Positions 52,155 through 64,000 of a stretch of DNA of 64,000 bases are shown here, in pieces. This DNA comes from Rhodomicrobium sp. (GTDB lineage Bacteria > Pseudomonadota > Alphaproteobacteria > Rhizobiales > Rhodomicrobiaceae): contig JBKQQS010000019.1 in NCBI GenBank assembly GCA_052144215.1, positions 1,624-65,623 on the forward strand, read 5' to 3'. A model generated the notes under the pieces. The model saw only the letters and a program-made list of their open reading frames with translations. It was not told the origin of the DNA and ran no database searches. The translations under genes were made by a program, and so were the position numbers. Every line of letters begins with the position of its first letter. Position 1 is the first letter of the stretch.

Positions 52155-52885
52155 ACCGCAAAGCAGTCCCGGCGATGCGTATTCTTGTGACGGGCTTCGG
52201 ACCGTTCCCGGGCATGCCGCAAAACGCCTCCGCAGCCATGGTGGAAGCGCTCGCGCGATCCCCTGCCGATCCCGGCATCGAGCATTTTACCGGGATCGTT
52301 CCGGTCGTCTGGGCCGATGCGAGGCGGATCGCGCGCGAGGCGGCCGCCAAGGTAAGGCCGCACGCAATTTTGCATTTCGGCGTCTCGAAGCGGGCGGCCG
52401 GCTTCGAAATCGAGACGTGCGCCGTCAATATGAGCGGCCCAAGGCAAGATCATGCTGGCTTTGTCCGGCCCGGAAAGCCTCTGGACCTTTCGGGACAGCG
52501 CATATTGCAAGCAACGATGCCGCCTTGCCCGCTTCTGAGGGCGCTCAGGCAAAGCGGGTTTCCGGCGCAGCTTTCGAGGAACGCCGGACGCTATCTCTGC
52601 AATGCGCTGTTCTATTGGAGCCTGGCGGATGCCGGCACGGACGGCCCGCTCGTGAGCTTCATTCATATGCCCGCGCTCGGCACAGACGTGAGCGTCCGGC
52701 CGCGCATGACGCTGGAAGGCGCGGCGGCGGGGGCGCAGGTTCTCATTCGCGCTAGCGCTCAGGCTGTGCTACTCGCGAAGCGGAACGTCGGCGGCAATCG
52801 CGGAGGATACAGCAACCATGGATCGCAGGCACTTCATGGGACTGGGCGGAATGACCGCCGCTCTCTTTGGCGTAAGCGCCGCTGA
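52151..52885 (+). CDS. pcp: Pyroglutamyl-peptidase I (C15)
   Basis: ILVTGFGPFPG...NAS; catalytic residues in FEIE, YLCNALFY and FIHMP. Confidence 0.85.
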   Translation: MNRKAVPAMRILVTGFGPFPGMPQNASAAMVEALARSPADPGIEHFTGIVPVVWADARRIAREAAAKVRPHAILHFGVSKRAAGFEIETCAVNMSGPRQDHAGFVRPGKPLDLSGQRILQATMPPCPLLRALRQSGFPAQLSRNAGRYLCNALFYWSLADAGTDGPLVSFIHMPALGTDVSVRPRMTLEGAAAGAQVLIRASAQAVLLAKRNVGGNRGGYSNHGSQALHGTGRNDRRSLWRKRR

Positions 52886-53639
52886 GGCTGCGCCTGGTAT
52901 TTTGAGCGGCTACGGCAAGGCCCTCGCCGAATGGGGGATCGAGCCGGGCATCTGGGGCGACCAGTCGCCTGCTATGCAAAAGGCCATCGGCGAGCTGGCG
53001 GCGGCCGGCCAGCCTATTGTCATTCCTGCGGGCCGCTATCGTTTTTCAAAGCTTCAGCTTCCTTCGGGGGCTGCCGTGTTCGGCGTTCCGGGCCTCACCG
53101 TTCTAACCGCACCGCCTGGATTGCATGTGTTCGAGAGTTCAAACGCTCAGGATGTTAGCCTGAGGGGCGTAAGCTTCTCAGGGACGGCCCTCTTGGCGCG
53201 CGAGTGCCGCAACCTCACCGTTTCCGATTGCCAGGTCCTATCGAGCGGCGGCGATGGCTTCGTTTGCTCAGGCACCGGCCTGTTCGTGGCCGGCAACAGG
53301 GCCCAAGCTTGCGCCAAAGCTGCGATCTGGGTCGAGGGTGACGGAGTGGTTACGAACAATCTCGTGAGCGGCCCAGGCCAATTCGGCCTGCGGCTCGGTG
53401 GCCCGGCCCGGCTCGGAATGCTGACGGTCATGAACAACAAGATCGAAGGCACAGCCGCCGGTATCGGGGTTTCGAATTCCGACGTTGGCTACGCGTTCAT
53501 CGCGATGAACATGATCTCGGGCGCAAAGAAGGGCGGCATCCGCGCGCTCATGGGCGATGAAATTACCGGCCACGACCTCACCCAAGGCGGGTCGGAAGCA
53601 TTCCGCAATATCGGCGTCGCGGCCAACGTTTCGCTTTGA
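52818..53639 (+). CDS. Tat-exported parallel beta-helix protein (TIGR03808-like)
   Basis: MDRRHF twin-Arg signal; DQSPAMQKAI...IPAGRY (pectate_lyase_3-like start); repeated V.NN/GN beta-helix turns. Confidence 0.7.
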   Translation: MDRRHFMGLGGMTAALFGVSAAEAAPGILSGYGKALAEWGIEPGIWGDQSPAMQKAIGELAAAGQPIVIPAGRYRFSKLQLPSGAAVFGVPGLTVLTAPPGLHVFESSNAQDVSLRGVSFSGTALLARECRNLTVSDCQVLSSGGDGFVCSGTGLFVAGNRAQACAKAAIWVEGDGVVTNNLVSGPGQFGLRLGGPARLGMLTVMNNKIEGTAAGIGVSNSDVGYAFIAMNMISGAKKGGIRALMGDEITGHDLTQGGSEAFRNIGVAANVSL

Positions 53640-53679
53640 GTGGCGAACCCGGGCCGCCGCGCAAACAGCGCGTCGCGCC

Positions 53680-53874
53680 TTAGCTCTGCTCGCCGGCTTT
53701 CGAGTCACTGGGTTTCGAGGCGTGGTCGACCGCGGAGCTTGCGGCTTTTTCGACCCCCTCCTTGGCAAGTTTGTGCCCAAGCGAATGATGCGCGGCGTGA
53801 TGGACGGCCGCTTTTTTAAATGCCAGCTTCCCCACGACTTTAGCCAGTAGAAGGGGTAGAAAATGAATAGCCAT
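53680..53874 (-). CDS. Small His/Lys-rich hypothetical protein
   Basis: 64-aa ORF with GAGG RBS, co-oriented with the upstream ABM gene. Confidence 0.55.
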   Translation of the reverse strand: MAIHFLPLLLAKVVGKLAFKKAAVHHAAHHSLGHKLAKEGVEKAASSAVDHASKPSDSKAGEQS

Positions 53875-53921
53875 GACGCCCTCGCAGTAACGCTAAGTGA
53901 ATGAGAATATCCTAAATTGAC

Positions 53922-54221
53922 TCAAAAGCCAGAGAGCACCGTGTGCGTGTGCCCAACCACGGGCGCCGAAGCAAAGTGCGGCCCCACCAGCTTCCGCCAT
54001 TCTTGAAAGTCTTCAGAACCGCGGAAATGTACCATATGGTCCTCAATCGTCTCCCACTTGACGACAAGCCGGTATTTCGATGGCGTCTCGACCGAGCGCT
54101 GCAGCTCCATCCCCCGGCATCCCTTGGCACGCTGGAATAACGGAACGGCCTTGGCAACGCCAGCCTCGAACGCGGCCTCCCCGCCAGCCTTCACCTCTAT
54201 CTCCGCAATCTCGAAAATCAC
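53922..54221 (-). CDS. ABM-domain (antibiotic biosynthesis monooxygenase) protein
   Basis: MIFEIAEIEVKAG.EAAFE...RSVETPSKYRLVVKWETIEDH...FRGS pattern. Confidence 0.88.
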   Translation of the reverse strand: MIFEIAEIEVKAGGEAAFEAGVAKAVPLFQRAKGCRGMELQRSVETPSKYRLVVKWETIEDHMVHFRGSEDFQEWRKLVGPHFASAPVVGHTHTVLSGF

Positions 54222-54811
54222 GGCGTTTCCTTTCTCATTCGGTAGCGCTGCCTTTGCAGCCCTTCGCAGGAAAGCTATCCTTGCGGAGGCCGGCCGTCCA
54301 CCGGGTTAATCCGAAGGTATATTCAATATGGAGATCCTTATGGCAGAGAACCGCCCGCACAGGCTGTCGTACAATAGCACTAGACTCCCTTACCTCCGGC
54401 AACCTGAGCACCGCGCTGAAAGCGCCCCCGCCTAAAACAAAAGGATCGCCAGCTACCGGCCTGGCGGCTGCCGGCCATGGCGCGGGGAAATCGACCAGCC
54501 CGGTCCAAGGCAAGTAGGGCCATGATCCCTCATACATGGCTGGAAGCCGCTCAAATCGTGAGTAGCGCTCTTGCCGCGATAAAGCTGATCTTTACCGGTT
54601 TTTATATGAGTTGAATGCGACGCATCACTGGCGTACAGGCGTTGCAAAAATTCCCGGATGACGCCAACGCACGCGAAGCCGGCGCAAATCGTTAGAAAAA
54701 TCCAGCTTAATCGCTGATCTAATAAGTTGCTTTTGGAAGCCAAAGAGGGTTGGATGCCAGCATAGATCCAAAAAAGTGCGTTTTGGCGGGCCAAACGCCA
54801 GGAAACCGATC

Positions 54812-55102
54812 ATGCCGATAGATCTCTCAACGGTCGTGAAGCAGGCAGCCGATCAAGTCTCGTGCAACTTGAACGGCGAGTATGCCATCCTCAATCTAAA
54901 GAGCACTCTTTATTTCGGCCTCAATCAGACCGGCGCGCATATTTGGGAAGCGATGAAAGAGCCGATCGCCGTTACCGATATCTGCGAGACTGTATGTAGC
55001 AGGTTTGACGTTGGCGAGGAGCAATGCCGGTCAGATACTCTGGCACTCGTAGGGGCACTTGAAAAAGCCGGCCTCATTGAGATTGTCGAGCGTGCGAAGT
55101 AA
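54812..55102 (+). CDS. PqqD/RRE lasso leader-binding protein (B1)
   Basis: GEYAILNLKSTLYFGLNQTGAHIWEAM...VCSRFDVGEEQCRSD...LEKAGLI, the PqqD/RRE signature. Confidence 0.92.
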   Translation: MPIDLSTVVKQAADQVSCNLNGEYAILNLKSTLYFGLNQTGAHIWEAMKEPIAVTDICETVCSRFDVGEEQCRSDTLALVGALEKAGLIEIVERAK

Positions 55103-55409
55103 GTATTTAAAAGCCACCGATAATGTTTGGGAATGCGGCGCAACTGGAAATGAGCTTGCAAGTTTTGAAAGTTTATTTTCGGGCGTTCTTGCACGTTCCA
55201 TCGGTGTTTCCCTCCCCGCAAATTATAATGTTCCGGGGCCGGCCGTCATTTGGGGACGTGGTACGAAACCACGGGAGCGGCGCGAAACCGGCTAGAAGGA
55301 CTTGCTCAAGGCCAAGCTGGATTGGATCGCCGATTTCAGGCATCCGAGCAAAGGCTTCGAAGCATGAGCCGGATGGACAAGTTTAACGTGTGTCGCCGCG
55401 GTTCGCATA

Positions 55410-55435
55410 AGGCTTCCGAAGATCTTCGGAAACCT
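55410..55435 (-). terminator. Stem-loop 3' of the lasso precursor gene
   Basis: Minus-strand RNA AGGUUUCCGAA-GAUC-UUCGGAAGCCU pairs fully with one G-U, 21 nt past the stop; no U-tail. Confidence 0.55.
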
Positions 55436-55456
55436 ACGGTAGCGGTTTGGTCAAGC

Positions 55457-55639
55457 TCACAAAAGATGTGTTCTCTCAAGGGGATAGATAAGGCCGCCGT
55501 CCGAGATTCCCCCGAGGCCAATAACCAAGGTGATGTCCTTCAACGTGCCATATTCAATTAGCTTCGGCGCCGCGTAAGCCTCTTTCCCACCGTTTTTCGC
55601 GGAGTCAGTCTGAGACGCTGTATTCTGTGAATTCGCCAT
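55457..55639 (-). CDS. Lasso peptide precursor (A), 60 aa
   Basis: AAAGGGGG RBS. Leader YAAPKLIEYGTLKDITL places Tyr at -17, Gly at -8 and Thr at -2. Core VIGLGGISDGGLIYPLERTHLL has Asp9. Confidence 0.9.
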   Translation of the reverse strand: MANSQNTASQTDSAKNGGKEAYAAPKLIEYGTLKDITLVIGLGGISDGGLIYPLERTHLL

Positions 55640-56075
55640 AGCCGTAACCCCCTTTATGCTGACATGCTCAACCTTTGCGAGCATAGTGTTTAAGACTTAG
55701 AACAGCTAGGTCAAGCGAAATCGGCGGGTTGCGGCATAGCGTCTCTAACATCGCTCTGGCGGTGGCGCGCCGCGATTAAGGCCGTCTCTATTCGGAGAAG
55801 CTCGCTGAGCTACCGATCTGGCCTCTCCTCCCGGTTGCATCATTGCTGACCATGCGATCGCCACCGGCCGGCAGAGCAAAGGAAGGTCCTGCGCGCACCG
55901 GGCTTCATCGTGCGCTAGCGCCACAACCATCGCGAGTATCCTTGACGGGCTTGTCACGTTAGGCGATACAAGCTGGAACGTGGCTTTGAAAAATGCAAGG
56001 TATCATCGGAAAAGCTCGAAGCTTAAGGGGGGCCTGGCATGGGCGAAGCGCTCTTTTCTCTCGTTGGCCGGCCAA

Positions 56076-57029
56076 ATGTTTAACTACGATGTCTACGGCG
56101 TAACCCTTAAAAGCGAGATTAAGCTAGCGCTTCCTGAGGGGCCTCGGGAGACTTGGAACGAGGCGGTCTCTTCTCCTTCCAACGCGGTTGTGAGGATCGT
56201 CGCCGCGGAAGCGGACGATTTTGCGATGGCCCCGGAACATCTTGCGTCCCCATCCGAGGATTGGATTCATCATAGCGTCCTTGAGAGCGGCGCTCTGTAT
56301 TTGCGCTGGCGGGATTGGTTCGAATTTGTTGTGGCCGCGGATGGCAGCAGTGTCGCGTGCCGCAACCTGAGCTGCACGCCGCTCGAATCTTTCGAGGCCT
56401 ATTTGGTCAATTTCGCGGTCACCGCGGCATTGATCCAACAAGGCGAAGAACCGTTACACGCGACCGTCGTCGAGATCGGCGGACGCGGCATCGGTTTACT
56501 TGGGTCGAGTGGCGCCGGCAAGTCGACGCTCGCTGCGTTTCTGACCGGCAAAGGCGCCGATGTCGTTACAGACGACATGCTGCGCATCACATTCCGGGGG
56601 CAAACCGCTATCGCACACCCAGGACCCTATCGTCTCAAGCTGTTTCCAGATCCAGCTTCGCGGTTCCTACCGGACGCCCAGAGCCGCGGCCGTTGGAGCC
56701 CGCTCGGCAAGAAACTGATCTACGATTTGGGAGAGGTCCGAAGACACCGGGCCCCGTGCCGCCTCTCCGCGCTCTACCATCTTTGCTTGCCGGCCGGGCC
56801 GCGGAACGATGAGATCAAGCTCGAGAAACTTGCCGGCACCGATTCGTTCAGAACGATCTTGGCTTCAACAATGAATGCTCGCTTGCATACGCCGTCGCGG
56901 CTCGAACGTCAGTTCCGTTTCGCCGAGCGCGTGGCCAGCGTGCTGCCCGTTTGCCGTCTGTCTTATCCGAGGCGGTTCGACGCCTTCGCGGAGGTCGCGG
57001 ACATGATCGATGGGTCGGCTCCAAAGTGA
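56076..57029 (+). CDS. HPr-kinase-like kinase of the lasso cluster
   Basis: LHATVV, Walker A GSSGAGKST and TDD motifs; stop overlaps the B2 start (GTGA). An upstream in-frame start at 55980 is possible. Confidence 0.85.
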   Translation: MFNYDVYGVTLKSEIKLALPEGPRETWNEAVSSPSNAVVRIVAAEADDFAMAPEHLASPSEDWIHHSVLESGALYLRWRDWFEFVVAADGSSVACRNLSCTPLESFEAYLVNFAVTAALIQQGEEPLHATVVEIGGRGIGLLGSSGAGKSTLAAFLTGKGADVVTDDMLRITFRGQTAIAHPGPYRLKLFPDPASRFLPDAQSRGRWSPLGKKLIYDLGEVRRHRAPCRLSALYHLCLPAGPRNDEIKLEKLAGTDSFRTILASTMNARLHTPSRLERQFRFAERVASVLPVCRLSYPRRFDAFAEVADMIDGSAPK

Positions 57030-57469
57030 CAAATTGGATGGCGCCCAAAGGATTGACGTTCCGGCATTATTCCTGGTTCGTGAGGGCCTGGTTCACCTTG
57101 GCGGAGTGCCGGCTTCGATTGGCGTGTCAGACATTCGGAGCCGTGCGCGGCTGGGCAGCGCGGCAAGGCCGCGGTACGGCGCGTGCGAAGACGCTGGCGT
57201 GGTCTGTCGAAGCGGCTGCAAAGCGGCAGAGAGGAGCAACATGTCTTGTTAAGGCGCTCGCATTGCAGCGATTGCTTTCGAGAAACGGGCATCAATCGGA
57301 ATTGCGAATAGGCGTCGGCAAGGCGGATGGGACGTTCAGGGCCCATGCATGGCTCGTCTCTGACCGCGTAACCTTGATAGGGGGACGAGAAGAAGACGAT
57401 TTCAAGCTCCTTGCCGCCTGGCCCACCTCCAGCGAACGTAGTGCCGATAAAGGAACAAGGTCTCCATGA
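57026..57469 (+). CDS. Lasso leader peptidase (B2, transglutaminase-like)
   Basis: Catalytic Cys (ATCLVKALAL), LRIGV and His (FRAHAWL). Confidence 0.92.
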   Translation: MTNWMAPKGLTFRHYSWFVRAWFTLAECRLRLACQTFGAVRGWAARQGRGTARAKTLAWSVEAAAKRQRGATCLVKALALQRLLSRNGHQSELRIGVGKADGTFRAHAWLVSDRVTLIGGREEDDFKLLAAWPTSSERSADKGTRSP

Positions 57470-59226
57470 GCTTCAAAGTCGTTTTCAACCGCGACGGTGC
57501 GCCCATCGGCACCGGCGGGTGCGAGGCGGAATACGGAAGGGGTCAAAAAGTCCTCGGGGCCTCGAAACAGGTATTGTTCACCTGGTCCAGCGCGAAGGAC
57601 GGCCCGCCCATCCAACAGGCAAGCTCTCCCGGCGGCCAGGTCTTCATCGTGGGCCGGATTCGCCTCGATGCCCGCGGAGATTTGGCGGCCCGATTAGGCG
57701 CCAGCGATAAAGTGAGCGACGCGCAATTGTGCCTTCTGGCCTATGCGAAGTGGGATGAGCGCTTTAGCGATCGCATATCGGGGGATTTTTGTTTCGCGAT
57801 CTGGGACGAGGCCCGGCAGACCTTGTTGTGCATGCGCGATCACCTGGGCGTGAGGCCACTTTTTTATGCGAAGGCGGGTTCTCAATGGCTGATCGGTGAC
57901 GATCTCGCCAGCGTCGTCCCGGAGCCCCAAATGGGCTGCGAACTCGACGCGTTCTGGATTGCTGACTTTCTAACCATTGGTTTTTCTATCGACTTTGAGC
58001 GCACCGTCTACCGCCACATTCAGCGGCTACCGCCTGCGCATGTCCTTGTGTTGTCTGCCACAAGCGAAGCGGTGCAAAAATACTGGTCGCTCGATATTCC
58101 ACAGCCGGTCTACTTTCGCGAGCCAAGAGAATATCTGGAGCAATTTCGCGAGCTCGTATCGCGGGCCATCGTGGACCGCATGCCCAGCGGCCGCGTAGGG
58201 ATTTCGCTCAGCGGCGGTCTCGATTCTTCCACGCTCGCTGCACTGGCAGTGAAGGCTGCCGGCGATCCGGCCCGGGTGGTCGCCCAAACCCGCTATTTAT
58301 CCCGCCTCATTCCGGACACCGAAGCTTATTTCAGCGCTCTTGTCGCAAACAAGCTTGGCATCGAGCATGCTCTATTGGAAAGAGATCAAGACTTTCTCGA
58401 TTGGTCCTGCCTTGAGCACACCGGCCAGACGCCAGAGCCGTCGCTCTCGGTTGGAAACACGGAGAGAGGAAAATGCATCGAAAACGAAATGCTGGGTTCC
58501 GCAAAGGTATGGTTCTACGGTGAGGGGCCCGACAATGCTCTCACATTCGAGTGGCGGTCTTATCTGCGCTGGCTCAAAAACAGCCGCAAATGGCCGGAGC
58601 TTGGACATGCTGCTGTACAATATTTTCGTTCTAAGAAAACGCGCGAATGGCTTCAATCCTTACGCTCTCTCCTGGCAATCGCGAACCCAAAGCAAAGCCA
58701 ATTCCGTATCGCGGTGCCATCCTGGCTGGACGGCGATTTAATTAAAAAGGTTGACCTCCACCGGAGAGTTGGCCGGTCATCCGGCGTTAGCACACACCCG
58801 TGGCGGCCTAGAGCCATGGCCTCATTCAATAGCCCGATCTGGCAGTACTTTTTCGAGCGATTAGACCCGGTCCTAGCTGGAACCCGCCTCGATTGGCGGC
58901 ATCCGTACTTAGATCTGCGAGTTCTGAAGTTTTTGCTCGCGGTTCCGCCAATTCCATGGGGGCGCAGAAAGCTGCTCATGCGTCAATCTATGCGCGGTTA
59001 TCTTCCGGCGGAAATTCTGACCAGAGACAAAACGCCGCTGCAGGGAGAGCCGTTCGCGGCGGCGTTTGAAGAGACGGCACGCCCATCGCTGACACCAGGA
59101 CAAACGATCTTGGACTTTGTGGATCTTGCAAGAATTCCGGTCAACCCGGCAACGCCATTCGAGAAGGAGGCGCTGCTCAGGGTTTACGCACTCAATCGGT
59201 GGCTGGGATCGCATGGATATCGCTGA
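57466..59226 (+). CDS. Lasso cyclase (C, asparagine-synthetase-like)
   Basis: GDFCFAIWD...RDHLGVRPLFY, ATP motif SLSGGLDSS, HPYLDLRV and RDKTP; ATGA overlap with B2. Confidence 0.93.
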   Translation: MSFKVVFNRDGAPIGTGGCEAEYGRGQKVLGASKQVLFTWSSAKDGPPIQQASSPGGQVFIVGRIRLDARGDLAARLGASDKVSDAQLCLLAYAKWDERFSDRISGDFCFAIWDEARQTLLCMRDHLGVRPLFYAKAGSQWLIGDDLASVVPEPQMGCELDAFWIADFLTIGFSIDFERTVYRHIQRLPPAHVLVLSATSEAVQKYWSLDIPQPVYFREPREYLEQFRELVSRAIVDRMPSGRVGISLSGGLDSSTLAALAVKAAGDPARVVAQTRYLSRLIPDTEAYFSALVANKLGIEHALLERDQDFLDWSCLEHTGQTPEPSLSVGNTERGKCIENEMLGSAKVWFYGEGPDNALTFEWRSYLRWLKNSRKWPELGHAAVQYFRSKKTREWLQSLRSLLAIANPKQSQFRIAVPSWLDGDLIKKVDLHRRVGRSSGVSTHPWRPRAMASFNSPIWQYFFERLDPVLAGTRLDWRHPYLDLRVLKFLLAVPPIPWGRRKLLMRQSMRGYLPAEILTRDKTPLQGEPFAAAFEETARPSLTPGQTILDFVDLARIPVNPATPFEKEALLRVYALNRWLGSHGYR

Positions 59227-60370
59227 CATGCCTCCTGAAATCGAGTTACTTTGCTGCCTGACGCGTCCGGATGCAGACTATAAACGGGTATTGGAACTAA
59301 CAGCGCCTGGGTTCGATTGGACGCGGGTCTTTAGTTTAGCGGCAATGCATGGGGTAAGACCACACCTGCTACACGCTCTCCGGAGTCCGCAATGCAGCGT
59401 TGAGGCAAGTGAAATCAAAGAAAAACTTGAACGATTTGAATGGGCGCAAGCTGCACGAAACCTCACCTTCACAAGGGAATTACTGAGGATCGCCGATAAG
59501 CTCGACTCGCGTGGAATACCTTTTGCGACTTTCAAGGGAGCTACACTTGCCCTGACGCTCTACGGCGGCCTCGCCCGGCGCGAATTCAACGATATCGATC
59601 TCATCGTGCGTCATGCCGATATGCCGGCTGCCGAAGAAGCTCTGCAATCTTGCGGCTATAGAGCAATGTTTGGCGCTGCGCACTATCGCAGTGCCTTCCT
59701 CGCCTATCAACAACAGCATATGTTTGTAAACGATGACTCAAGCATTGGGATCGACCTCCATTGGGGTTTCGCCCCAAAAGGCATACCGTTTCCAATCCAC
59801 GCGGGCACGATATGGGGAAACCTTGAAACTGTGCAGATTGGTGGACGTCAAATTCCAACCCTCGGGCGAGACGATCTTGCAATCTTACTCGCCGGACATG
59901 GAACAAAGGAAAGGTGGCGGTCTCTTGACTGGATATGTGACTTTGCCTTCTTTTACGATAGCCACACTGAAATCGATTGGAGCGCACTCATTGCGCGTGC
60001 AAGGCGGATCCGGTGTGAGAGGCCAATTTTGTTGGGGTGCACGTTGATTTCCGAACTCATGGGAATTAGCGTAAATCCGAAAATCCTTCAAAGCGCAAGG
60101 AGCGAGCCATCTATCCAAGCTCTGGTCCGTTCGATTGTTACGGGACTCAGCGCTTCAAGCATCGAGGCAGACGCGGTTGCGGCTGGCAATCGTGTTGACT
60201 TCGTCCTTTGCGAGACCTCGATCCAGAAGTTGAACGTTCTTCTCCGTCTTTGCTTCATTCCAACCGTTGGCGATTACGAGACTATGCCTATTCCGCGTTC
60301 CTTGTGGCCGCTTTACCATGTCACGAGACCCTTCCGCCTTGCACGCAAGCTTTTATCGGGAAGTATTTGA
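59213..60370 (+). CDS. Nucleotidyltransferase (NTP_transf_5-like)
   Basis: TFKGATLALTLYG...REFNDIDLIV (G...D-x-D) and IDLHW motifs; overlaps the cyclase stop. Confidence 0.88.
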   Translation: MDIADMPPEIELLCCLTRPDADYKRVLELTAPGFDWTRVFSLAAMHGVRPHLLHALRSPQCSVEASEIKEKLERFEWAQAARNLTFTRELLRIADKLDSRGIPFATFKGATLALTLYGGLARREFNDIDLIVRHADMPAAEEALQSCGYRAMFGAAHYRSAFLAYQQQHMFVNDDSSIGIDLHWGFAPKGIPFPIHAGTIWGNLETVQIGGRQIPTLGRDDLAILLAGHGTKERWRSLDWICDFAFFYDSHTEIDWSALIARARRIRCERPILLGCTLISELMGISVNPKILQSARSEPSIQALVRSIVTGLSASSIEADAVAAGNRVDFVLCETSIQKLNVLLRLCFIPTVGDYETMPIPRSLWPLYHVTRPFRLARKLLSGSI

Positions 60371-60423
60371 GAGCGCCTCTTTGAGGCATTTGCAACCGAT
60401 AAACCGTTGGCCGGTTCTGGCCG

Positions 60424-62268
60424 TTAGTTGCCCGGTTCCCGATGCCTGTCGAACAGCTCGCCCGGCATGGCATCGGCGTTTTGCTGTCCGCTTAGCAGAT
60501 TGCCTTTCCCGCCAATGGCACTGCGGGGCGGCCCAATGTTTACGGCATATCCGCCTTCCAGCAAGATGAGTTGGTCCATCCATGCGATGGACGGCGCGCG
60601 GTGCGCGATCATGACAATCGTTACCTGGCCCAAGAGATCGCGCAAGGCGGCGATGATCTCGCGTTCGTCGACAGGGTTCAAGGCATTTGTGGCCTCGTCG
60701 AGAATGAGCAGTGAGGGTTTGCGAAGCAGGGCGCTCGCAATTCGCAGCCTTTGCCGCTCACCGCCCGACAGGCGCACGCCGCGGTCGCCAGCCATGGTCT
60801 CGAGGCCCAAGGGTAGCCCCCGCACGAGCGGCACTGCATGCGCGAGATCGAGACAACGCCATATGTCGGCTTCGCTGGCTCCGCGGGCCCCGATGAGCAG
60901 GTTGGCCCGGATCGTATCGTGAAAAAGCGGTGCGTCCTGCGGCACATAGGTGACGCTGGCACGCCAGTGAGGCCGCGAATGCTCATCGATAGGCGCTCCG
61001 TCGATCAGCAGCGCACCACTGGTGGGTGCCAGCAGCCCAGCGATCAGATCGGCGAGCGTCGATTTGCCGGCGCCGGACAACCCAACAATCCCGATCGCCT
61101 TTCCGGCAGGCAGCTCCAACGAGACACGGTGAAGTGTCCACTCGCCGGACTGCTCCGGATATCTGAAGCTCACGTCACGCAACTCAATCCCGCGGCGCAG
61201 CGCGATTGGCACGATTGTCTCGGGCAACGCTTCCTCGGCAGCGCGTGCTCTCGCCTCTATGGTGCGCAGCGCATCGTACTCGGCCAAGGCGCTCCCCAGC
61301 CCCTGCAATCCAGACAAAAAATTGATGGCTAGCGGTAGCAAGCGGGAGAAGATCGCGATGAGGAGGATCAACTCAAGGCTCGATGCCCGGAAGATCCTAA
61401 GGCTCGCATAGACGAACAGGACAAGGATTAAAGCGGCGGCGGTTTCCTGCACCAGCGTGGCGCGCGCGCCGTTCTCGCGTGCGGCAACCACCGCACCTTG
61501 AAAGGAACCCGAGATCACGGAGAAGTCTCGCTCGAGTTCCCGTTCTATCGCGAAAGCCTTGGCGAGCTTCAGCCCGTCCATGCGCGCGGCAAGCACGTCG
61601 TAAAGGCCTCTCATGGCACGCACAGTTTCTGTACCCCGCTGATACGCCCGTCTTTGAAAGATGAGCAGCGGAGCAGCCAGTACCAGCATCGCGGCCAGCA
61701 CGGCTATGACCAGTGGCGGCGAGGCGGCGAACGCGACACCGAGCCCGGCCAAGATTGTCAGCACGGACGCGGTTAGCCCGAAAATGGCAAAGGCTGCGCT
61801 TTCGACGCTGTTTACTTGCATCGTTAGCGCGTAGGTGTCATGCGCCTTTCTGGAGCCCAGGAAATGCAGCCAGCTCGCCCGCGAAAACGTCGTGTAGATC
61901 CTCCGCCGGACATGGTCGACGTAGCCCGCCATGAACTGCGCGGCGAGAACGGTGCTCGCGTAACCAACTGCCGAACGTAGCAGGATGATTACAAAGAAGA
62001 CTGCGAGCACCAGCTCCAGCGTTGGCGTTAGCCCAGTAATCGTCTGAAATTTGATTAGGCTCGCGCGCGCCCAGCCTCCAGTCTCAGAGGATGGTGCGAG
62101 GCCGGCGAATGCCAGCAAAGGGATGAGCAGCACGAAAGTTAGGCCTTCGGTAAAGCTGCGTACCAGCATCAGCAGCACCACCCCGCCCAGCATCCGGGGG
62201 CGGAACCTAACGAGGTCTGAAAGGAAGACCGAGGCCGATGAAAGGACTTGGTGCCGGGTTGCGCTCAC
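60424..62268 (-). CDS. ABC exporter (fused TMD-NBD; lasso D-like)
   Basis: Six-TM N-terminal domain, Walker A GLSGAGKST, signature LSGGERQR, Walker B LILDEAT and H-loop IAHR. Confidence 0.93.
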   Translation of the reverse strand: MSATRHQVLSSASVFLSDLVRFRPRMLGGVVLLMLVRSFTEGLTFVLLIPLLAFAGLAPSSETGGWARASLIKFQTITGLTPTLELVLAVFFVIILLRSAVGYASTVLAAQFMAGYVDHVRRRIYTTFSRASWLHFLGSRKAHDTYALTMQVNSVESAAFAIFGLTASVLTILAGLGVAFAASPPLVIAVLAAMLVLAAPLLIFQRRAYQRGTETVRAMRGLYDVLAARMDGLKLAKAFAIERELERDFSVISGSFQGAVVAARENGARATLVQETAAALILVLFVYASLRIFRASSLELILLIAIFSRLLPLAINFLSGLQGLGSALAEYDALRTIEARARAAEEALPETIVPIALRRGIELRDVSFRYPEQSGEWTLHRVSLELPAGKAIGIVGLSGAGKSTLADLIAGLLAPTSGALLIDGAPIDEHSRPHWRASVTYVPQDAPLFHDTIRANLLIGARGASEADIWRCLDLAHAVPLVRGLPLGLETMAGDRGVRLSGGERQRLRIASALLRKPSLLILDEATNALNPVDEREIIAALRDLLGQVTIVMIAHRAPSIAWMDQLILLEGGYAVNIGPPRSAIGGKGNLLSGQQNADAMPGELFDRHREPGN

Positions 62269-62761
62269 GCCAGATCAGTCTCCGTTTGCTGCAGCTTCGG
62301 TGCTCCGTCAAAGAATGCCCGGCGAAGCCATTAAGCATCCGGCATCGAGCTTCAGGACAGATATAGCCGGAACATCATCAGCCTAACTATGTAGCGGCAT
62401 AAAATGCAATTAGATCTTCCGTTGATCCGCAAGGAGCATAAACAGGACCATTCGGCCAGTAGCCCATGGTTCCGAAAACCATCCTACTGTTGGAAATCAG
62501 GGCCCTGCATTATAACTGCCTGCTCCAAGATATTTTCGAGTGCACGGCATTGGCGCCTCTCCGGAAAGGATCGCTGCCTATCCGCCCTGAGCTTTCGCGA
62601 AGGCTATCACCGGCATAGTTCCGCTTGGCGGCGGAAGCAAGCGGGTAGAGGAGGCCAGCCCCCACCCCATGATCGCGGTAGCAAGCTGACCCGCTAACAC
62701 CCCAGAAAGTCTAGCCAATCTTAGACATAAGCGATTGAAACAGGATGATTTTTGAGGCAGC

Positions 62762-62846
62762 TGGTGGAGGGGGTTGGATTCGAACCAACGTAGGCTTAGC
62801 CAACGGATTTACAGTCCGTCCCCTTTAGCCACTCGGGCACCCCTCC
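62762..62846 (-). tRNA. tRNA-Tyr (GTA)
   Basis: 85 nt: GGAGGGG acceptor, anticodon arm GACGGACTGTAAATCCGTT, long variable arm, GGTTCGAATCC T-loop and encoded CCA. Confidence 0.97.
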
Positions 62847-62934
62847 AGGCAGGAAAGCGCGAAAAATCGCGAGCGAGATATTTAGCCGCTAACGGCCGCC
62901 GTGTCACTCCAAAATCCGCGGTGCGGCATTCCTA

Positions 62935-64000
62935 TCAAGAGACGGAGCGCGTTGCAATAGTTTGAGCATCGAGCGAGCGGGCGGCGGCGATCAAGGCTTG
63001 GCCCAGCGAAATGCCGCCGTCGTTTGCCGGGAAAGAGGCCGGCGCCAGCACCTTCAGGTTCAGCCCCGCAAGCCGTTCGCTTACCCCTTCGAGCAGAATC
63101 TTGTTCTGGAAGACGCCTCCCGTGAGGACGGCCGCCTCGCAGCCATGGGCCTCAGCGAGGCCGTGAGCGGTCGCAGCCACAATTTCGATGAGGCCCCGAT
63201 GAAAGCGCGCGGCGATGATGGCGCGATCGATACCGGCGGCGAGGTCTTTCAGAATCCCCGTCCAAAGCGGCGTCCAATCGAGCCGCACTGGGTCGCCAGG
63301 CACCAAGGCCGCGCCATAGCCCTCGCGGGTTTCTGCCATCGCGTCTTGCGCGAGCGCCTCCAGCTCAATCGCCGCCTGCCCTTCGTAGGACGCGGCGTCG
63401 AAGCAAAGCCCCAGTGCCGCCGCGACCGCATCGAAAAGCCTGCCCGCCGAGGACGAGAGCGGCGAATTGATGCTGCGCTCCATCATGCGAAGGCAGGTTT
63501 CGAAAGGCTTTTCTTTCAGGCGCCGTACTGCCTCAAGGCTAGCGTAGCCCTCGCGGACGGCCTCCCATCCCAAAAAAGTGTGAAGATGGCCAAGCGTATT
63601 GCGCCAGGGCTCGCGCATGGCTTTGGCGCCCCCGATCAAGGGGACCGGCGCGAAATGAGCGAGCCGGCGATAGCTCCCGTAGTCCGCGAGCAGAAACTCG
63701 CCGCCCCACAGCTCGCCATCCTCGCTGAGGCCGAGGCCGTCGAGCGCAATGCCGATGACGGGCGGGGCCGGAACCGGCACGCCGTGCTCGCCAAGTGCCG
63801 CGGCAATATGGGCATGATGATGCTGCACTGTGACCGGGGAAATGCCGGCATCCTCCGCGAGGGCTAGGCCCCATTTCGTGGAGATGTAATCGGGATGGGC
63901 ATCCACCGCGACAACCTGCGGCTCGAAGCGGAAGAGGTTCTTATAAAGCTCTAAGTTCCGCCGGTAATCGGAATGCGTTGCCACTTCCTCCAGGTCGCCC
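62935..64000 (-). CDS. hypF: Hydrogenase maturation carbamoyltransferase HypF, C-terminal part (start outside the window)
   Basis: DAHPDY, VQHHHAH, ALDGLG, SSAGRLFDAVA, TGGVFQN and PANDGGISLGQA motifs. Confidence 0.95.
   Translation of the reverse strand, partial: GDLEEVATHSDYRRNLELYKNLFRFEPQVVAVDAHPDYISTKWGLALAEDAGISPVTVQHHHAHIAAALGEHGVPVPAPPVIGIALDGLGLSEDGELWGGEFLLADYGSYRRLAHFAPVPLIGGAKAMREPWRNTLGHLHTFLGWEAVREGYASLEAVRRLKEKPFETCLRMMERSINSPLSSSAGRLFDAVAAALGLCFDAASYEGQAAIELEALAQDAMAETREGYGAALVPGDPVRLDWTPLWTGILKDLAAGIDRAIIAARFHRGLIEIVAATAHGLAEAHGCEAAVLTGGVFQNKILLEGVSERLAGLNLKVLAPASFPANDGGISLGQALIAAARSLDAQTIATRSVS

Follow-up and report, generated by a model that had tools for sequence, protein, structure and literature searches.

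An intact lasso peptide cluster of the kinase-plus-nucleotidyltransferase type in Rhodomicrobium sp., probably acquired horizontally, and its clade with a conserved near-terminal threonine

We have analyzed a stretch of 64,000 nucleotides (nt) from Rhodomicrobium sp., an alphaproteobacterium of the Hyphomicrobiales (assembly GCA_052144215.1, contig JBKQQS010000019.1, positions 1,624 to 65,623; hereafter the window), which contains a gene cluster for the synthesis of a lasso peptide, a ribosomally synthesized peptide with post-translational modifications (RiPP). According to our analysis, it can be regarded with good confidence as an intact, horizontally acquired cluster of the kinase-plus-nucleotidyltransferase type. 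The cluster type itself is known; judging from the sequences compared, the novelty lies in the clade to which the window belongs, in which a threonine near the C-terminus takes the place of the C-terminal serine.

The open reading frame (ORF) list and the hidden Markov model (HMM) scans revealed seven intact lasso genes within positions 54812–62268: a PqqD-like RiPP recognition element (B1), the precursor (A), an HprK-like kinase (K), a leader peptidase (B2), a cyclase (C), a nucleotidyltransferase-fold enzyme (NTase, N), and an ABC exporter (D). All of them had been named in the original prediction, which was made from the sequence alone, and their assignment is borne out by matches to PqqD, Hpr_kinase_C, Transglut_core3, Asn_synthase, NTP_transf_5, ABC_tran, and the lasso leader model. 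The prediction was silent on strand: both the precursor, divergent from the K-B2-C-N operon, and the exporter, convergent with it, lie on the minus strand. Its claims of a tight operon with translational coupling of K, B2, C, and N and of a 22-residue core were correct; K and B2 overlap by GTGA (57026–57029), B2 and C by ATGA (57466–57469), and C and N by 14 nt. The 4-nt K/B2 overlap also occurs in the homologous loci L073, L087, L088, and L090. The genes for B1 and B2 are not fused but lie 1.9 kb from each other. Only these seven cluster genes were recognized by the ORF list and HMM scans, and no isopeptidase was found among the island genes. Small ORFs in the non-coding ends of the island and in the spacer between A and K were considered as further cluster genes and rejected, having no counterparts in related loci.

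The precursor consists of a leader, MANSQNTASQTDSAKNGGKEAYAAPKLIEYGTLKDITL (residues 1–38, positions 55526–55639), and a core, VIGLGGISDGGLIYPLERTHLL (residues 39–60, positions 55460–55525), and is the sole exact match to YxxPxLx3Gx5Tx in all six frames of the window. It scores 21 bits against the lasso-leader model NF033521, above the cut-off of 19, and its ATG is preceded, 8 nt to the 5' side, by a Shine-Dalgarno-like AAGGGGG site. Leader position −2 is Thr and core position 3 is Gly. The core ends in ...ERTHLL followed by TGA, that is, in Leu-Leu, with no C-terminal Ser. The possibility that a frameshift or sequencing error hides such a Ser, as in PsmA, was rejected: none of the neighboring frames ends in Ser, and such a Ser is lacking in the clade as a whole. 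The predicted product is the 22-residue core closed by a Val1-Asp9 lactam, with a lasso mass of 2274.27 Da; this ring is proposed because of the exact leader register and the clade-wide xxGxxGxxD ring. A single-sequence search with the precursor against 5.8 billion proteins returned the protein of the window as the sole match, and the nearest core, AIGTRGNSDGGILPPLNRTSLL from soil metagenomes (L091), is identical at 13 of 22 positions and also has Ser8. No characterized cluster that has the same precursor was encountered.

Homologues of the kinase number in the hundreds at 45–59% identity, and nearly all of them are metagenomic. Their neighborhoods were gathered by exact look-up, from two genome hits, and from a metagenome scan (80 loci) with a kinase alignment from which the P-loop had been removed, because matches to the P-loop pattern had overwhelmed an earlier scan of genome contigs, which yielded one close relative. 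Layouts were read by tblastn with the six proteins of the window. Two arrangements prevail. In about 30 loci of type I, as in the window, the order is B1> <A K> B2> C> N> <D, and the precursor is always divergent from the kinase; in about 18 loci of type II it is K> B2> C> B1> A> N> <D. The kinase is coupled to B2-C in every related locus. In the kinase tree, the loci of both types group into a single clade of 62 sequences (Shimodaira-Hasegawa-like approximate likelihood ratio test, SH-aLRT, 99), split by type, with the window inside a supported type I subclade of 13 members. The 62-member clade stands apart from the Firmicutes (paeninodin-like) branch and from the Acidovorax/sphingomonad branch. 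Related clusters often adjoin polysaccharide genes such as glycosyltransferases, epimerases, and Bac_transf (L072, L073, L075, L087–L090), and some of these loci hold extra candidate tailoring genes (NodU-type carbamoyltransferase, methyltransferases, radical SAM), of which the window island has none.

The cores of this clade share a distinctive tail. A leader-only regular expression that left the core unconstrained, run over the loci obtained through the kinase, was the first search to reveal relatives of the precursor and gave 53 unique precursors, and a profile search extended the set to 69 unique cores. A tail Thr is present in 68 of the 69, the sole exception having Ser at the equivalent place (HSRP), and a C-terminal Ser occurs in eight of the 69. 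Outside the subgroup with TGRGG tails, Thr lies 1–4 residues before the C-terminus in 37 of 42 cores, against 16.2 ± 3.0 expected for the same placement in shuffled tails (maximum 27 in 5000 shuffles). The residue directly before the tail Thr is Lys, Arg, or His in 35 cores, against 16.9 ± 3.0 expected. In the ring, Asp occupies core position 9 in 56 of the 69 unique cores, and Gly is found at position 3 in 35 and at position 6 in 40 of the 54 precursor candidates scored; the first residue, mostly Ala, Thr, or Ser, is Gly in none of the 69. An unsupervised MAFFT alignment of 33 related precursors showed Y22, P25, G31, T37 (leader −2), and D47 (core Asp9) to be invariant and T57 (core Thr19) to be at least 90% conserved. 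By comparison, all precursors found next to ten kinases from the distant clades end in Ser; seven of them come from six Firmicutes loci, one comes from Acidovorax, and two come from sphingomonad metagenome-assembled genomes (MAGs).

Two further features of the cores deserve mention. In a type II subgroup of 11 cores with long tails, a TGRGG motif is conserved after the ring (loci L121, L122, L138, L143, L146, L148, L155, L159, L168, and L019/L086, the last from a Reyranella MAG); the Thr in this motif is apparently equivalent to the tail Thr of cores with short tails. Exactly two Cys are present in several type I cores (L072, L073, L075, L087, and L096; for example, AVGFSGRPDGQDCEISDRHCKTSI), which suggests a disulfide beside the lactam; the core of the window has none.

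By analogy with PadeK, ThcoK, SyanK, BsfK, and PsmN, we infer the following order of steps. The 60-residue precursor, transcribed divergently from the K-B2-C-N operon, would be bound by B1 through its YxxPxL leader and phosphorylated in its linear form by the HprK-like kinase. B2 would cut after Thr(−2)-Leu(−1), and the cyclase would join the amine of Val1 to the side chain of Asp9 around the tail, giving the lasso form of VIGLGGISDGGLIYPLERTHLL. The NTase-fold enzyme would decorate the phosphate, and the convergent ABC transporter would export the product. Threading of the peptide, its export, and immunity to it are presumed, and it is reasonable to regard the exporter as a putative means of self-protection.

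Since the core of the window has no C-terminal Ser, the site of the kinase must differ from that of the characterized systems that use this residue. The tail conservation points to Thr19 as the candidate, a proposal to which we assign slightly less than an even chance; its phosphate may then be decorated by the transferase. Loci without the NTase still retain [K/R]-Thr, and the motif therefore goes with the kinase. The HprK substrate Ser46 of HPr is likewise preceded by Lys. Ser8 and position 3 are the other kinase sites that we weighed; they seem less probable, neither being conserved in the clade. Aromatic residues are missing from 18 of the 29 type I tails, and the plug of the nine-residue ring may therefore, speculatively, be the modified Thr or the basic residue preceding it; such a role of the modification has already been suggested for pseudomycoidin (PMC6993621). 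In its fullest form the proposal would be that the kinase of this clade switched from the C-terminal Ser to a sub-terminal [K/R]-Thr and that the decorated phospho-Thr is a steric lock which keeps the tail threaded; this we consider unlikely as it stands.

The known systems both support and limit these predictions. In the literature (PMC9266682, PMC8498205), the C-terminal Ser of the linear precursor is reported as the phosphorylation site of PadeK, ThcoK, PsmK, and the alphaproteobacterial SyanK, and is called extremely conserved. To the phosphate on this Ser, PsmN attaches one or two hexoses (PMC6993621), whereas BsfK, from a cluster of Bradymonas sediminis with both K and N, phosphorylates core Ser3, a reaction accelerated by B1 (PMC10368454). 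The clusters of pseudomycoidin (psmA-K-B1-B2-C-N-D, Bacillus pseudomycoides) and paeninodin (Paenibacillus dendritiformis) resemble the window in the split B1/B2, the His-Lys-Asp-Asp set of the HprK-like kinase, the ABC exporter, and an uncharacterized N gene of the NTase fold, structurally closest to ANT(2'') enzymes. However, their precursors end in the phosphorylated Ser, while that of the window ends in Leu-Leu; the Firmicutes precursor gene is on the kinase strand, immediately upstream of the kinase gene, while in the window it is divergent; and the Firmicutes kinases are only about 23–30% identical to that of the window and fall into separate clades. The analogy with paeninodin and pseudomycoidin drawn in the original prediction holds for the kinase motif and the NTase fold but fails for its defining substrate feature, the C-terminal Ser, and for the gene layout, and paeninodin-like phosphorylation of a C-terminal Ser is excluded here because the precursor ends in ...THLL.

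SyanK and SyanA share with the window an alphaproteobacterial host and a kinase that acts on a lasso precursor, but SyanA keeps its C-terminal Ser and is polyphosphorylated there (Zhu et al. 2016, as cited in PMC9266682 and PMC8498205), whereas the core of the window lacks this residue. The sphingomonad and Acidovorax kinases sampled are 28–31% identical to the window kinase and branch apart from it, and three of them, from Acidovorax, a Sphingomonas MAG, and a Sphingomicrobium MAG, have neighboring precursors that end in Ser. The bsf cluster (BsfA/K/B1/B2/C/N/D) is likewise proteobacterial with K and N, and BsfA, which has no C-terminal Ser, is phosphorylated internally (PMC10368454); it differs in its Ser3 target and in Ile at leader −2, where the window has Gly3 and Thr(−2), together with a conserved hydroxyl near the C-terminus. 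Peptides of the astexin/caulosegnin type are similar as proteobacterial class II lassos with a nine-residue ring closed on Asp, but their clusters have a fused B and an isopeptidase, in contrast to the split B, the K and N genes, the ABC exporter, and the lack of an isopeptidase in the island. Kinase-type clusters have previously been mined in Proteobacteria, and SyanK from Sphingobium yanoikuyae and BsfK have been characterized (PMC9266682, PMC8498205, PMC10368454). The claim that a Firmicutes architecture in an alphaproteobacterium is in itself novel is therefore not supported: reviews and papers already describe the cluster type, Proteobacteria included, and BsfK provides a precedent for a non-C-terminal site. 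An uncharacterized, exported, and probably tailored lasso peptide, as originally proposed, is still the best reading. No paper on this clade, on the tail-Thr site, or on lasso peptides of Rhodomicrobium was found in our search of the literature, which was incomplete.

The cluster lies on an island that carries nothing else recognizable. The closest genome of the same genus (G033, contig C99) aligns to window positions 52279–54317 (90.8%) and 62762–64000 (90.1%), leaving only about 92 bp at this empty site, from the 3' end of a tRNA-Tyr gene to an ABM monooxygenase gene; the intervening part of the window is therefore an insertion. On the right it is bounded by the 3' end of the tRNA gene, where the homology to G033 restarts exactly, and its guanine-cytosine (GC) content is 0.571, compared with 0.60–0.635 in the flanks. 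The tRNA was the only match in the Rfam scan, and no direct or inverted repeats of at least 11 nt were found at the borders.

An orthologue of the kinase is absent from the other 38 genomes of the genus, G019 having only a distant relative at 27–30% identity. In samples of 401 genomes each from the order and from the class, close orthologues turned up in two genomes per sample, with the genome of the window included in both counts; the remaining carriers are G219, in the order, and a Reyranella MAG. No genome of the order besides G219 (contig C4, L084) and that of the window has a close orthologue; in G219 there are three precursor genes and no NTase, and all three cores retain [K/R]-Thr near the end. 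Another kinase-type lasso-like locus in the genus, different and distant, is found on G019:C43 (L004), with matches to D, K, B2, B1, and C at 27–41% identity; because of it, we conclude from the sequences that the genus acquired such clusters more than once. G056, of the same order, contains six HprK-like paralogues in one genome (L003, L013, L015–L018), at least three with an adjoining PqqD-like gene, which may represent an expansion of kinase-type RiPP loci. The features of the island and its border are listed in Table 1.

Table 1. Features of the lasso peptide island and its border in the window (positions counted from the first nucleotide of the window)
Feature	Positions	Strand	Evidence or remark
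Island carrying the whole cluster, nothing else recognizable	54318–62761 (8,444 bp)		Empty site in G033
B1, PqqD-like RiPP recognition element, 96 aa	54812–55102	+	PF05402 E 2.3e-17; NF033536 E 1.9e-18
Stable perfect 24-nt hairpin	55411–55434	-	GGUUUCCGAAGAUCUUCGGAAGCC; 23 nt 3' of precursor stop codon
A, precursor, 60 aa plus stop	55457–55639	-	Leader motif; NF033521 21 bits
K, HprK-like peptide kinase, 317 aa, ATG at 56076	56076–57029	+	PF07475 (Hpr_kinase_C) E 2.1e-7
B2, transglutaminase-like leader peptidase	57026 or 57038 to 57469	+	PF13471 (Transglut_core3) E 4.4e-17
C, lasso cyclase, 586 aa	57466–59226	+	Asn_synthase E 1.5e-20 plus GATase_7
N, tailoring enzyme of nucleotidyltransferase fold (NTP_transf_5), 385 aa	59213–60370	+	PF14907 E 2.4e-55
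D, ABC exporter, fused permease-ATPase, 614 aa	60424–62268	-	ABC_tran E 1.2e-31 plus ABC_membrane
tRNA-Tyr(GTA)	62762–62846	-	ARAGORN; Rfam RF00005 61 bits; 3' end is right border of island

In the kinase, His128, Lys149, Asp166, and Asp167 are invariant among 29 homologues, and this His-Lys-Asp-Asp set has been shown by mutagenesis to be important in lasso kinases (PMC9266682, PMC10368454); the profile of the kinase family matches the HprK structures 1jb1, 2qmh, and 1ko7 at about 3e-6. In the NTase, the DxD motif (D127/D129) is invariant in 25 orthologues. A sequence search of the PDB with the NTase gave no match, and the fold search, with an AlphaFold model of predicted local distance difference test (pLDDT) 89.8, gave as nearest solved folds the aminoglycoside nucleotidyltransferase ANT(2'')-Ia (5kqj, 5cfu, 5cfs, and 4xje; target template modeling score, TM, 0.65–0.71). 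The reported structural neighbors of PsmN are likewise ANT(2'') enzymes (PMC6993621), so that the NTase of the window can be called PsmN-like by family and fold neighbors. B2 scores 67.3 bits against NF033537 (cut-off 33), starts at GTG 57026 (147 aa) or at ATG 57038 (143 aa), and has its Cys and His in ...GATCLVKAL... and ...AHAWL.... Orthologues of B1 that are 49–64% identical occupy the same position in type I loci. The top NCBIfam models of the exporter are of the HepA/MsbA type, and a convergent exporter orthologue stands at the same position in L088, L090, L094, L108, L109, and L110.

The cyclase does not fall among the true asparagine synthetases, in agreement with the original prediction: the lasso cyclase model NF033535 leads with 231.5 bits, ahead of asn_synth_AEB with 147.6 bits. 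Because it starts with MSFKVV, it lacks the Cys2 nucleophile of the glutamine-dependent asparagine synthetases, and its PP-loop SGGLDS is present at residue 249. Downstream of the precursor, a 91-nt stretch with the hairpin of Table 1 folds at −27.2 kcal/mol (z = −3.2 versus shuffles); it may act as a terminator or as a 3' stabilizer of the precursor transcript, a role that we put forward only tentatively because the hairpin has no U-tract.

Several points weigh against the reading of the island as an imported lasso cluster with a kinase that targets the tail Thr. No integrase was found in the island, and no mobility gene explains its arrival. B1 remains under the curated cut-off of the lasso PqqD chaperone model NF033536 (lasso_PqqD_Bac; E 1.9e-18), and both leading cyclase scores are under the cut-offs of their own models. 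A Val N-terminus is uncommon among characterized lassos, yet a non-Gly residue is typical of the clade. The precursor set relies on a canonical leader, so that atypical precursors were missed, and the core counts come from related sequences and not from independent events. Finally, the conservation of Thr19 and of the preceding Lys or Arg could be structural, as a plug or ring contact, or could serve target binding.

This last point leads to the strongest of the competing explanations, which we regard as rather unlikely: the cluster makes a lasso, while the kinase and the transferase act elsewhere (on Ser8 adjoining the ring Asp, the leader, or another cellular substrate) or not on the peptide, and the role of [K/R]-Thr is structural, be it as a steric plug, through a ring-tail hydrogen bond, or in contact with a target. 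Arg is indeed a known plug residue for nine-residue rings, as in capistruin, and Ser8 occurs both in the core of the window and in the nearest core, that of L091. Moreover, BsfK shows that lasso kinases can select a ring-proximal site, Ser3 (PMC10368454). However, position 8 is variable across the clade, with S, P, V, Q, R, N, K, and other residues, and position 3 is Gly in most cores. Apart from the tail Thr, no hydroxyl residue is conserved clade-wide, and K is coupled to B2-C in every locus. The peptide may also carry no modification at all.

A silent or decaying passenger, recently imported and unexpressed or unproductive in this host, seems to us very unlikely. Such a fate would fit a recent insertion of foreign GC content in which no strong sigma-70 promoter excess was found, and many lasso clusters, bsf included, are silent in the laboratory (PMC10368454); nevertheless, all seven frames are intact, the catalytic motifs and overlaps are conserved, and plausible ribosome-binding sites precede B1 and A. 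That the genes are not a lasso cluster but an HprK-related/PqqD/nucleotidyltransferase cassette of another peptide or polysaccharide pathway (HprK_rel_A/B, SynChlorMet ScmC/ScmD) is hardly credible. The kinase does match TIGR04352, TIGR04355, and ScmC, B1 weakly matches ScmD and PqqD_rel_X, and several related loci adjoin polysaccharide genes, but those matches are far under their cut-offs, while B2 (NF033537) and the leader (NF033521) are above theirs, the cyclase, Asn-synthetase-like, is coupled to B2, and the core contains Asp9 for ring formation.

Overall, lasso peptides tailored by kinases and transferases have few characterized cases, and the C-terminal Ser rule derived from the first of them is still widely quoted. 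The clade of the window is sizeable, proteobacterial, and almost entirely uncultured, and it breaks this rule consistently, which provides a testable prediction of a new phosphorylation site and possibly of a modification-dependent lock. The island of Rhodomicrobium sp., one of very few assemblies carrying the clade, offers a complete and compact template of 8.4 kb for heterologous expression, and the empty site in the sister genome documents the recent transfer of a whole RiPP cluster beside a tRNA gene without a mobility gene. If the phospho-Thr lock proves true, the lasso topology would depend on a post-translational modification in peptides that otherwise have no bulky plugs.

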